DNA of 64,000 nt from Raillietiella orientalis (lineage: Eukaryota), in contig JAYWIR010000064.1 of assembly GCA_036172245.1 (NCBI GenBank), positions 186,001-250,000 on the forward strand, read 5' to 3'. Positions within the stretch are counted from its first letter, which is position 1. The number at the start of each line of letters is the position of its first letter. Both the position numbers and the translations under genes were made by a program. Under the pieces are notes generated by a model that was not told the DNA's origin, did no database searches, and was given only the letters and a program-made list of their open reading frames with translations. Below are positions 24,880 through 55,299 of this stretch, piece after piece.

Positions 24880-26250
24880 GTATTTTCTAGTGATGACATT
24901 GCGGAGGATGTCGGCGCAGGAGCTCTGGTGAGAGAGCCTGGGGAGGCTCTCACACCGAAGAAGGTCAGGGATAGAGACTGCGTGGTTGAGTCTCGGCACG
25001 TGGCACCACTGGGCGCTGTGGGTTCGAATACTCGGAAAGAATCAGATGGGTGGGGGGGGGGGCGTCGTGGGTTCGAGTTCCTCCCGTGAGATGACGCTGG
25101 TCCGCCTGCATTCATTAGGGTGAGGACTGGTAGCGGTTCAAACCAGATGCCTTCGATGAGTGGCCGGGATTGGGAGCCGACCTCCGGGTCCTTCTAGGAA
25201 GCAGAATTAACCAGTGGGGAGTTCCCCTCTGGTTGTATAAAGGAGCGGACACCCCTCTCAGGGGAACTTCCGTGTCGTACCATGGAGCCAGCTCCATGTG
25301 ATACCTCTCCAGAGAGTGCAGAGAAGAGCGCCCCTCCCTTTGGGGAGCACCTTTCTGGGAAAATTCGGAAGCGTCCCTTCGGGGTTCTCATCAGAGGAAG
25401 AGAAGACAGGGAGCGGTTCCCTTGTGGGTTCCTTTCAGAGAAAAAAAAATCGAGCGATCCCCTCCGGGTTCCCTCTGCAGAGAACAAGGAAGAAATTTCT
25501 CTTCGGAGACAACCAGGGTAGAGGGTTCCCTTCGGGGTTCCCACCAGGAGTAAGAGAAGGAAGGACTCCTTCCTCCAGAGCGTTCCTGGATTCACAGGGT
25601 GGTCTCTCCAGGGTTGCCTCCCATAAATTGAAGAGTTGTAGCACCCTCGGGTGGCACGGGCAGCGTCAAAGAGCTTCGTGAGCTGCGAGGTGAACGGTTC
25701 TTCGGCACATGAAGAACCGGAGAGAAAAAAAAGGTCGGGTGAGGTCGACGGAGCAGTCGAAGGCCTTCCTAGGCAGAGTGAGATGGAGAGACCTCTGGAA
25801 CGGAATTCACCCATGGCTCGAATCGATCGGTTGTGACCACTCGGATGAAGCCCCCTGGGGATCGACTCCAATAGATGCCCTTCCGGAAAGCTCATCCGGT
25901 GGTCCACTGCACCCGTGCAAGAGGTAGTGCAGAGGCGAGTGGATCTACGTCTTTCCGGGAATCCAAGCCTGCGAAGCCGAACGGGGATCAGTAATAGGAG
26001 GCAGCGTAAGGGGGGGGAGATTGCGTAAACGTCCGTAACAGAGGCGTAGGTCAAACAGAGGTGCGCTCTGGCGCGCGGCAAAAGGCGGGATCTCTTCATT
26101 TTGTTGTACGGTGGTCGGGGAGGCAGGGAGATGCAGATGGGTCCCCTCACCCGGTCACGCCGTGGCGTTTCCTTATCAAAGGCCACGTCCCGGCGAATCC
26201 AGAGAAAAAATCTCGGGCGGGTTCTAGCGAGATCCATGATGGGAACGGAG
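24880..26250 (-). mobile_element. Ty3/gypsy RT remnant split by the SINE-like insertion
   Basis: SFPEGHLLESIPRGLHPSG..IRAM (cf. FLGH.IS..GI.PD..K..AI) at ~25800-25900 resumes beyond the insertion as FFGVRASPGSLTRAP (cf. AF..LK..LT.AP) at ~24915-24965. Confidence 0.5.
24971..25730 (+). mobile_element. Long tRNA-headed SINE-like element, full-length copy 1
   Basis: B-box-like motifs at 25021, 25070 and 25135; hairpin-repeat body; 9-bp terminal stem CGGTTCTTC/GAAGAACCG at 25695-25719; A-rich tail; candidate TSD AAGGTCAGGG (24961-24970) / AAGGTCGGG (25731-25739); homologous to 28852-29577 and 54385-55142. Confidence 0.75.
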
Positions 26251-28851: not shown

Positions 28852-29577
28852 TTCTTTCTGGTTCGCGAAGTGCTGAAGAACCGTCCGCCTCCTTAGGAAG
28901 GGGGGCACACGGAGCTCTTCAGCCCAGTCCACGCCACCCGAGGATGCATGTCACTTTTCAAGAGTACGGGAAGGGACCCAGAGGGACCGCCCTGTGAATC
29001 CAGGAAGACTCCAGAAGGAGTCCGTTCCTCTTACTCTTGGTAGGGAGTCCCGAAGGGAATCCTTGTCCTCGTTGTCTTCAAAGAAACCCCGAAGGAATAA
29101 GAGGATAAGAAGATCTTATCCACTTCCTTGTTCTCTCCGGAGGGACCCCATGGAAAGGATTTGCTCCTTGTTTCCTCTCCTGAAGAGAACCTCATAGGGA
29201 CGCTTCCCCATTTATCTGGGAGCAGCACGCTTCCTGACACTCAGGAGAGTCTATTAATCCACCACCTCCATGGTACGAGATTGAGGGTCCTCCTCTCTGA
29301 GGGGGGGACGGCCCCATCTGCATACCGGATGGAAACCCCGAAGGACTCCTTGATTCCTGGATTGGACTCCGGGGCTCCCGGCCAGTCGATGGGGCTTCCA
29401 GCAGTGCTGCACTCCAAGCTTGGAGGCCAGGGGACACATCTTGCAGGGGGAAGAGGGACTCGAACCTACGGTGTACCCATTTCTCTGAGGTCGATTTTTC
29501 CCCGGGCGGGATTCGAACCCACAGCTCTTGGTTCCACGCGCAGAGGGACAGCATCCACGCGGCTGCCGGCATGGTCT
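28852..29577 (-). mobile_element. Long tRNA-headed SINE-like element, full-length copy 2
   Basis: Reverse-complement B-boxes GGGTTCGAATCCC (29508-29520) and GGTTCGAGTCCC (29455-29466); same body; terminal GGTTC..GAACC hairpin at 28860-28882; (GAAA)n tail; candidate TSD CTGTCTTTCT (28842-28851) / CCGTCTTTCT (29579-29588). Confidence 0.75.
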
Positions 29578-53400: not shown

Positions 53401-53698
53401 AAGAAACATCGTGGTTCCTCAGATAGCACCCTTTTCAAACGTCTTTCGTTAGGCGAATTTTCCTACCCGCTTCTTGAGGGGAAAATCCTTAATCCAGAAA
53501 TGTCCTGGATCGATTTTCGACTCAGCTTGTCTCGTTGCTATGTTGCCTTTCTCTTTCAGTGCGATGAAGAAGCGTGTCGCTAAATACACGGCTTGTTCCC
53601 GAACCCCCCCTATCGCGGGGACCTGATGCTCCTTATTCTGGTGAAAATTGAGTGCTCCTTCTTGGGAAAAGGAGGCCGCGTTTGCCTTTGCCCGCGTT

Positions 53699-53905
53699 GG
53701 CGGCCGCGTAGCTACGGTCTCCACGCGTCGTACCAAACGTCGCGGGTTCGAATACCCGGAAAGCATCCTTTCCGGATATTCGAAAGGATTGACGCCGAGA
53801 ATGGGGAGCGCATCGTGGGTTTCAAGGATGACGCTGGTTTGCCCTGTAGGTACGGCATTGGTTGACACCCGGTCATGCCGGGGTGTTTACTTACAAAAAA
53901 TAAAC
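53699..53905 (+). mobile_element. tRNA-derived SINE-like family, short copy
   Basis: GGCGGCCGCGTAGCT..GGGTTCGAATACCCGGAAAG (cf. copy 1 GGGTTCGAATACTCGGAAAG), TCGTGGGTT..GATGACGCTGGT (53827-38), A-rich end ACAAAAAATAAAC. Confidence 0.65.
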
Positions 53906-54384
53906 ACATGTCTGTGGCAGGACGTTTGATCCTGCCACGTTACTTATAACTACGAGAAGGAACATGCCGGGAAATGGCACGCAGACCAGCGGGGTTCGCC
54001 TCGGCAGCAAAGGGGGAGAGGACAGAAACAAAAAGAAAGAAAAACAAAACAAAAAATGCAGTCAAAAAAATGGAGTAGGGGGGAGGGAGGAGGGAAGAGA
54101 TTACTGTGTGCTGGAGGGCGTCCTTGTAAAGATGCCGGCAAATTCCTGTTTCAAGGCTCCCAGATGGGGCCATCTTGACGCTGTCCTCATGAAGAGGACA
54201 GCAAAATAGATGGCGTTCTTGTCGTTGTGATCCCCCTCTGCAGTTGCCCCATGCAGCTACCATCCCACGTAGGCAGCAAAATGCTGCTAGGGATGCGGCC
54301 GGCATGAGAACGTCGCGCAGGAAGGGGCGCTTTAAAACGCCTCTGGAGTTGCCGCCAGGGGTTCCAAAGGTCGCGTCAAAGCGT

Positions 54385-55142
54385 CCCTAAAGGGGTCGGA
54401 GGACAACGCAGTCCACTAGGAGGTGCGGGAGACATTCCCACTCCCCGCACCTGGCATAGTTCAGGTCCACCTCTCCCAGCCGTGTCTAATGATTCCAGTG
54501 AGCGTTGCATGGGAGGCCCCAGTTCAGCAGCGTCAACTGGTGGGAGTCGGAAACCGAGTGCTCCCCGCTGACTGGCTTCCAGGATTCGGAGCTGACCATC
54601 CGGACTCCTTCCAGGAATCAAAGGAGTCGGTTTCCTTCGGATTTCCCCTCCGGTTGTGAAAATGGAGACGTCCCTCCCCTCAGAAGAGATCTTAGATCGC
54701 GTTTCTTGGAGCTGGTTAATATCCCCCTTGGGAGGGTTGTCTCTCCCGATTGTCAAGAGGCGCGGTGCCCCCTTCGGAAGCGCCCTCCAGAGAAATTTGG
54801 GGGCGTCCCTTTGGGGTTCTCTTCAGAGGAGAAAAGAAGGAGCGTCTCCCTTGCGGGTTCCCTTCGGAGAAGAAATAACGGAGCCGATCCCTCCAGGGAA
54901 TCCCTCTGGAGAGAATAAGGAAGAGGTTCCCTTGAGGTTCTCCACCAAGCGTGGAACAGAGTGGACTCCTTCCTCAGGCGCCTTTCTGCATTCATAGAAT
55001 AGTCCCTCCGGGTCGCTTTTTAACTCTTGAAAAGCCGCACGTACCCTCGGATGACGTGGACGGTGTCCAAGAGCATTGTGTGTCCCCCCTTAAGGACCAA
55101 CGGTTCTTCAGTACTTGACGAACCAAAAAAAAAAAAAGAAAA
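54385..55142 (+). mobile_element. Long tRNA-headed SINE-like element, full-length copy 3 (decayed head)
   Basis: Body aligns by eye to copies 1 and 2 (GCGTCCCTTTGGGGTTCTCTTCAGAGGA; GGACTCCTTCCTC; ACCCTCGGATG); terminal CGGTTC..GAACC at 55101-55124 followed by A13. Confidence 0.75.
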
Positions 55143-55299
55143 TTCGACAAAAAGACAAAAGCCGGAAGGAAAGCAGCGAAGCAGAAGAAAGTCGAAAGGA
55201 TTTCCGTCATCCTTTTTTAGAGGATAGACTTTCGCAGAGCTCAGGCGTCCAACGTTCTTGCTCTTTGCTCCTTACAAGTGTCCCTCCGCCCTTCCTTTC

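Follow-up and report, generated by a model that had tools for sequence, protein, structure and literature searches.

An unusually long, probable tRNA-derived SINE and its three or more subfamilies in the genome of Raillietiella orientalis

The 2012 description of SINEBase covers 175 SINE families of 75-662 nt and defines SINEs as shorter than 700 bp, in practice shorter than 1 kb; it includes the quasi-oligomeric CHRS family, whose subfamilies differ by internal duplications (PMC3531059). BC1, a 152-nt RNA that is expressed from a known single gene and is the master of the rodent ID SINEs, comprises a tRNA-derived 5' domain, a central A-rich region and a non-repetitive 3' region, and its 5' domain folds as a long stem and not as a cloverleaf according to a title cited in the same article (PMC1978531). 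In the mammalian T+ SINEs B2, Dip and Ves, a Pol III terminator or a shortened remnant of it is located before the poly(A) (PMC8466645). Tailless retropseudogenes, as described for cellular RNAs of therian mammals, are truncated at single-stranded A-rich positions (PMC5322556), retrozymes are non-coding, structured and non-autonomous elements in tandem units of 170-400 nt (PMC7229834), and LINEs of the relaxed type recognise the A tail (PMC3747384).

The window analysed here is a stretch of 64,000 nt (positions 186,001-250,000 of contig JAYWIR010000064.1), and the genome searched comprised 210 Mb in 491 contigs. An HSP90 exon of this genome scored higher with HSP90-alpha of vertebrates (903 bits) and with Hsp83 (879) than with the yeast protein (596), which places the host among the animals. 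A segment of the window that had been flagged in a sequence-only reading is an old, end-shortened copy of a high-copy, non-coding retroposon family. Judged from the sequences of its copies, this family is likely a tRNA-derived SINE of unusual length, probably made by Pol III and mobilised by LINEs, with three or more subfamilies. This agrees with the earlier proposal of a non-coding, tRNA-headed, unusually long and LINE-mobilised retroposon, for which the sharp 5' end, the target-site duplications (TSDs) and the tRNA match of the first head unit now speak.

Like the tRNA SINEs described in SINEBase, the family is interspersed in more than 100 copies and has a tRNA-related head, a body of obscure origin and an A tail; like those of CHRS, its subfamilies differ by internal duplications. 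Unlike the SINEBase families as described in 2012, it has a GC-rich hairpin-array body and unique sequence behind an internal A tract, and it measures 0.88-1.06 kb against 75-662 nt, so that it is longer than any of them (maximum, 662 nt); the old form is within the 1-kb working limit only, and the young form within neither limit. A literature search, with most subscription papers outside its reach, found no tRNA SINE of at least 0.9 kb. The family shares with BC1, as described in PMC1978531, the order of tRNA-derived 5' domain, central A-rich region and non-repetitive 3' region, and with BC1/ID the progeny without the 3' region and a head predicted as a long stem; unlike BC1, it is ~1 kb long, many of its progeny retain the 3' region, and it is known here from genomic copies alone.

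Three copies are located in the window (Table 1). They had been described as sharing one layout of ~730-760 nt, of which the relatedness was confirmed by nhmmer (E-values of 1e-171 for copy 1, 1e-99 for copy 2, and 1e-21 and 1e-86 for the head and the body of copy 3), but neither the 3' end nor the contiguity of copy 3. The head of copy 3 is located ~670 nt upstream of the remainder, with an inserted repeat in between, and not in a contiguous copy of ~750 nt. The supposed terminal stem-loop and the A or (GAAA)n tail are both internal, since the family continues for ~115-150 nt, and copy 3 for ~75 nt, beyond them. The first ~10 nt of copy 1 are degraded or missing, and the copy is 3'-truncated, ending at the internal A tract; copy 3 stops just before a terminal hairpin that is present in full-length copies. 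The B-box-like motifs that had been noticed in the heads are present, three in copy 1, two in copy 2 (at 29519 and 29466), and one in copy 3 (at 53745) together with a degenerate one (at 53818). Also as noticed earlier, runs of four T (T4) are missing from the sense strand of copies 1 and 2; copy 3 has a single T5. No Pfam match was obtained for ORFs overlapping copies 1 and 2.

Table 1. Coordinates of the predicted features in the window
Feature	Position	Strand	Remarks
Copy 1, old-subfamily SINE	24971..25730	+	nhmmer model positions 11-807 of 828
Left TSD, copy 1	24961..24969	+	8/9 identical to 25731-25739
Right TSD, copy 1	25731..25739	+	8/9 identical to 24961-24969
Head unit 1, tRNA-derived, copy 1	24971..25035	+	subfamily consensus 58-67% to host tRNAs, ~70 nt
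Box B in head unit 1, copy 1	25021-25031	+	box A-like stretch near start, by eye
Second B-box-like motif, copy 1	25070..25080	+	16/19 identical to box-1 context
Third B-box-like motif, copy 1	25135..25145	+	old subfamily only
Body, degenerate GC-rich hairpin array of ~40-43-nt units	25330..25560 (limits approximate)	+	period 40
Internal 9-bp stem-loop before A tract, copy 1	25695..25719	+	from sequence; family extends past it
Copy 2, oldest ('c2-type') subfamily	28852..29576	-	ends in decayed internal A tract
Candidate TSDs of copy 2	29588-29579 and 28851-28842	-	9/10 identical
Copy 3, head	53690..53862	+	model positions 2-169
Insert in copy 3, from a different repeat family, ~670 nt	53863..54535	-	matches in 43/263 loci, some at the same place
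Remainder of copy 3 (body, A tract, purine linker)	54536..55212	+	model positions 177-827

A 25-nt motif of the head gave 2,252 matches genome-wide at up to three mismatches, on both strands and on many contigs (control, 0), which is a lower bound on the copy number. Copy 1 itself gave 4,660 candidates, and its best non-self matches are 70-80% identical (40 scored). At least three successive subfamilies were distinguished, termed c2-type, old (copy 1) and young, with consensus identities of 72-85% and in a ladder-like succession of a single line. The full length is ~0.82-0.88 kb in the old form and 1,059 nt (median of 22 copies) in the young form. Young copies are 86-96% identical to their own consensus; the best copy reaches 96-97%, and none in the samples exceeds 97%. 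The young set is star-like: 21 of its 22 copies are nearer to the consensus than to each other member, and the remaining one is of the old type. For one young copy, the best non-self matches among 40 scored reach 86-92% identity, and a very recent burst was therefore not seen. CpG sites diverge slightly faster than other sites (0.109 vs 0.075). In the 5' flank of L088, the pre-hairpin end motif of the SINE directly precedes the head of another copy, i.e. the two are head-to-tail neighbours.

The first head unit is tRNA-derived, as judged by comparison with 54 distinct host tRNAs: the young consensus matched at 48/72 positions (tRNA-Gly), the c2-type consensus at 44/69 (tRNA-Asp) and the old consensus at 42/72; the scores were 19.5-24.6, whereas those of shuffled sequences peaked at 14.3-14.8 (SD ~1.5). 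Relative to the SINEBase limit for tRNA relatedness (at least 60% over 60 nt), the young and the c2-type consensus are above and the old consensus is just under (58%). Units 2 and 3 are 60-62% identical to tRNA in the old consensus, with scores of at most ~2 SD above shuffles, and do not score above shuffles in the young and c2-type consensus; box 2 probably arose when the T-arm of unit 1 was duplicated locally. The strict box-B pattern is absent from the young consensus and is matched only by box 3 in the old and only by box 1 in the c2-type consensus; in the old and the young subfamily, a single position of box 1 deviates from it. In the young subfamily, a 1-nt insertion interrupts box 2, and box 3 has been lost. 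The proposed multi-B-box promoter is hence not a conserved design, because the extra B-boxes decay between subfamilies. The predicted fold of the head comprises long stems and no cloverleaf, and ARAGORN predicted no tRNA in the window or in 30 loci of the family. SINEs with several tRNA units are represented by CYN-III of colugos and Twin of mosquitoes.

The 5' end of the family is sharp, as seen at 81 junctions with near-random flanks and a G at position 0 in 70%. On the 3' side, the order is stem-loop, A tract, purine-rich linker (~70-100 nt), terminal hairpin (~45 nt), T run and poly(A). A motif of the terminal hairpin gave 146 matches genome-wide (control, 0); 30 of these loci were inspected, and the SINE model was found upstream in 28, while the other two start inside the linker. 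Distinct copies with the terminal hairpin were found for each of the three stem types (25, 3 and 5, respectively), and linker and hairpin therefore predate the split of the subfamilies. The T run behind the hairpin has 1-9 nt (mode, 3), with 3 nt in 16 of 35 copies and at least 4 nt in 11 of 35, so that a terminator or a remnant of it stands before the A-rich tail; ahead of this run, no T4 is present in the three consensus sequences, compared with 2-7 A4 runs. AATAAA is missing from all three consensus sequences and was found within 150 nt in 4 of 35 copies. The variable-length T run directly before poly(A) resembles that of the T+ SINEs B2, Dip and Ves, as described in PMC8466645; unlike these, the family has no AATAAA in any consensus and is far longer, and as AATAAA is lacking it is T+-like at the 3' end but not a member of the T+ SINEs.

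Among 30 copies selected by the head (exact motif matches, the first among the matches listed; 23 young and 7 old), seven are full, one ends in the hairpin, four end just before it, five end at the stem or A tract, and 13 end earlier, some of the latter being interrupted by other inserts. Among 73 copies selected by the body, the 3' end is located at the A tract in 35, within the linker in six and immediately ahead of the hairpin in 28, and four are full. The 3' ends fall at several preferred points, and one cluster is located 0-5 nt before the terminal hairpin. Copies 1 and 2 belong to the class ending at the A tract, and copy 3 to the class ending before the hairpin. Copies with 5' truncation occur among loci L137-L166.

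In two separately diverged young copies (L251:2300-2452 and L252:2236-2388), the SINE breaks off at about nt 833 and gives way to one shared sequence of ~150 nt. This sequence opens with an inverted likeness of the first 30 nt of the SINE, and over its other 125 nt the two loci are 99% identical. This shared break suggests a recent site-preferring insertion or a template switch. The inverted head was considered as a sign of terminal inverted repeats and rejected, as it belongs to a separate insert in both loci.

The candidate TSDs of ~10 bp reported for copies 1 and 2 were recovered (AAGGTCAGG / AAGGTCGGG, 8/9 identical, for copy 1; 9/10 for copy 2); taken singly they are weak indications, and they are backed by the tests on the family. 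In full-length copies (head and hairpin present), a TSD score of at least 8 was reached by 23 of 35, compared with 6.1% of 396 swapped flanks. These TSDs are of variable length (9-16 bp) and mostly start with A, and in 15 of the 23 copies the left TSD is separated from the 5' G by 1-9 extra bases. Among old copies that end at the A tract, six of 16 reached a score of at least 7 (null, 1.2%), as did 9 of 26 head-selected copies among the matches listed (null, 2.8%), and TSDs were found in one or two of 27 copies of the pre-hairpin class. In a position-blind test, 48 unselected, mostly old copies gave no excess (5/48 vs a null of 5.8%); the position-aware tests were devised after it. A tail, TSDs of variable length and 5' truncation, the marks of LINE-type integration, are hence all found in the family.

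LINEs are abundant in the genome, with 3,358 reverse transcriptase (RT) candidates, of which 150 were scored; the top one has endonuclease and RT domains. No partner LINE sharing 3' homology with the SINE was found in 16 LINE loci (the top scorers, best 16 of 3,358 candidates), and no LINE sequence was found upstream of the terminal hairpin in 30 of the 146 hairpin loci. The insert in copy 3 is located ~110 nt downstream of box 1 and is bounded on both sides by a 6-nt duplication (one mismatch). It shows a likeness, in antisense, to a LINE 3' end (67% with the terminal part of a long ORF in L043), and several of its matches are end-to-end, so that it is possibly a fixed-length, non-autonomous LINE derivative. 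Positions 26141-26180 of the window resemble, by eye, the antisense LINE-end motif that opens this insert. In L037-L044 and L046, LINEs are ~5.5 kb apart and are followed by the same short sequence after their 3' ends, as in tandem or site-specific arrays. The element at L045:1690-8554 encodes an RT, with no APE domain detected, and adjoins a sequence that we take to be 28S rRNA, in antisense, near the R2 site. A 5S rRNA copy (97 bits) at L148:2566-2684 has an A run after it and then, immediately adjoining, a full-length SINE.

Copy 1 had also been said to split a collinear gypsy RT. No RT was detected in any search of its flanks: there was no match in 18 frames within ~3 kb on each side, nor in nine short frames near the copy at E<=10, and one frame of the right flank gave no match in PDB. 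The 30 ORFs of the window gave no Pfam match, and the right flank of copy 1 is single-copy; a very decayed remnant of a gypsy RT may be present beside it.

For the formation of the copies, the following steps are proposed. Pol III would start at the 5' G from an internal promoter, read through 0.88-1.06 kb without T4, and stop at the T run behind the terminal hairpin; transcription from head to T run is proposed because no internal T4 is present in the three consensus sequences, and the RNA of the family is probably made by Pol III. An A tail would then be added to the RNA by some enzyme without an AATAAA signal, a step suggested by the absence of AATAAA from the consensus. The ORF2 product of an APE-type LINE (of the A-tail-recognising, relaxed type) would nick an A-rich target for target-primed reverse transcription, and priming on the A tail would yield full-length copies, whereas internal priming on a single-stranded A-rich region would yield 3'-truncated ones. 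The ends of copies 1 and 2 at the internal A tract are best explained by such internal priming. The pre-hairpin class is not well explained by it, since TSDs are found in only 1-2 of 27 of these copies. The truncation at preferred single-stranded A-rich sites, with TSDs, resembles that of the tailless retropseudogenes of PMC5322556; unlike there, it is a SINE RNA that serves as template, and TSDs are mostly missing from the ends beside the terminal hairpin. Linker and terminal hairpin were probably captured, by analogy with BC1/ID, as unique flank from an early master locus, and would span the sequence from an old A tail to the first downstream terminator of that locus. The family probably became longer as hairpin units were duplicated in tandem and hairpin tips were extended.

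The old consensus shows a period of 40 nt in its body (autocorrelation of 0.57, compared with a maximum of 0.38 in 200 shuffles) and matches itself at 73% over ~100 nt; in the young consensus, the period was undetected by autocorrelation (0.34 vs 0.37). CTTCGG occurs six times on the sense strand and not on the antisense strand, and forms the predicted loop in many hairpin units of the body of copy 1. Folding z-scores of two consensus sequences were -7.9 and -5.1 for sense and -3.9 and -3.4 for antisense (12 shuffles each); for copy 1, they were -1.1 for sense, i.e. no better than shuffles, and -2.8 for antisense. Indels between the subfamilies add whole units or lengthen hairpin tips, and 13 of the 14 distinct indels of at least 5 nt are located outside helix interiors, compared with ~50% expected (nominal p ~0.001, on the basis of one predicted fold, one alignment and manual reading of contexts). 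Covariation supporting the fold was neutral, both in the consensus comparison and in RNAalifold on heads. Single changes in stems gave G.T 43 times and A.C 36 times (p=0.5), double changes gave nine paired and nine unpaired combinations, and stems are slower to change in four of six subfamily comparisons; RNAalifold on 29 of 39 candidate heads (ten that ended short or carried extra sequence were dropped) showed any double change in 3 of 21 pairs.

Much of this evidence also bears on an alternative that we regard as rather unlikely, namely that the copies are retropseudogenes of one changing, functional host Pol III RNA of ~1 kb, comparable to BC1/BC200, with a fold under host selection. The single ladder-like succession of subfamilies and the terminal hairpin behind all three stem types fit such an RNA, though its source gene was not seen, the best copy in the samples being 96-97% identical to the consensus. 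The stronger folding of the sense strand in the two consensus sequences is likewise in its favour, and the sense fold of copy 1 is not; the strand bias of CTTCGG fits as well, with the reservation that its copies are not independent, because they descended from duplicated units. The position of the indels agrees with a selected fold, but slippage at hairpin tips yields the same pattern, and the covariation counts are neutral. The 5S rRNA copy with its A run suggests that Pol III RNAs may be retroposed in this genome. The RNA itself would be an undescribed functional Pol III RNA of ~1 kb, with a tRNA head refolded into long stems and with selected hairpins of the UUCG type, a reading of the sequences to which we give little credence; that it would end in the terminal hairpin followed by U, and be A-tailed without AATAAA, appears equally doubtful.

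The probable assignment to a LINE-mobilised SINE is challenged even less by two further explanations. A retrozyme-like or ribozyme-bearing element, with a circular or cleaved RNA, would be hairpin-rich as the family is, and the 3' ends clustered 0-5 nt before the terminal hairpin, mostly without TSDs, would be accounted for if the RNA were cleaved at the base of that hairpin; such an element is nevertheless highly improbable. No Rfam family was found at gathering score in the window, only weak, unrelated matches being obtained at relaxed thresholds (E<=5 for six loci, E<=10 for copies 1 and 2), and neither a hammerhead core on the sense strand nor a telomerase-type template (TTAGG repeat) was found at a conserved place, so that the suggested retrozyme-like module or captured known ncRNA found no counterpart in the Rfam and hammerhead searches. 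The sequence analyses of the family gave no sign of a catalytic or host function. The family is non-coding, structured and non-autonomous as are the retrozymes described in PMC7229834; unlike these, it has no hammerhead and forms neither tandem 170-400-nt units nor an LTR-bounded arrangement, and consists of dispersed single copies with a tRNA head, unique flanks, poly(A) and TSDs. Least probable of all, and by a small further step, is a non-autonomous LTR element, solo LTR, MITE or Helitron derivative: visible TSDs are often missing in old copies and 3' ends are ragged, as such an origin might have it, but TG..CA ends are lacking, as are terminal inverted repeats and direct copies in pairs, and the full-length copies, with poly(A) and TSDs of 9-16 bp, largely refute it, together with the 5'-truncated ones. 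None of the signs of LTRs that the sequence-only reading had named as counter-evidence applies, as the family starts with G and ends in a T run and poly(A).

If the family is a SINE, it exceeds the sizes catalogued for SINEs (up to 662 nt in SINEBase 2012) by up to 60%, at 1.06 kb. The known classes of retroposons are unchanged by it, and its relevance is for retroposon specialists; an expressed source gene and a selected fold, if true, would give it much greater importance. It illustrates a probable growth route of a Pol III retroposon, in which hairpins are duplicated, T4 is avoided and flanking sequence is captured as far as a terminator. Its end, with a terminator and poly(A) and without AATAAA, is open to study, and its copies offer thousands of natural 3' ends for comparing internal priming with tail priming by the LINE machinery.
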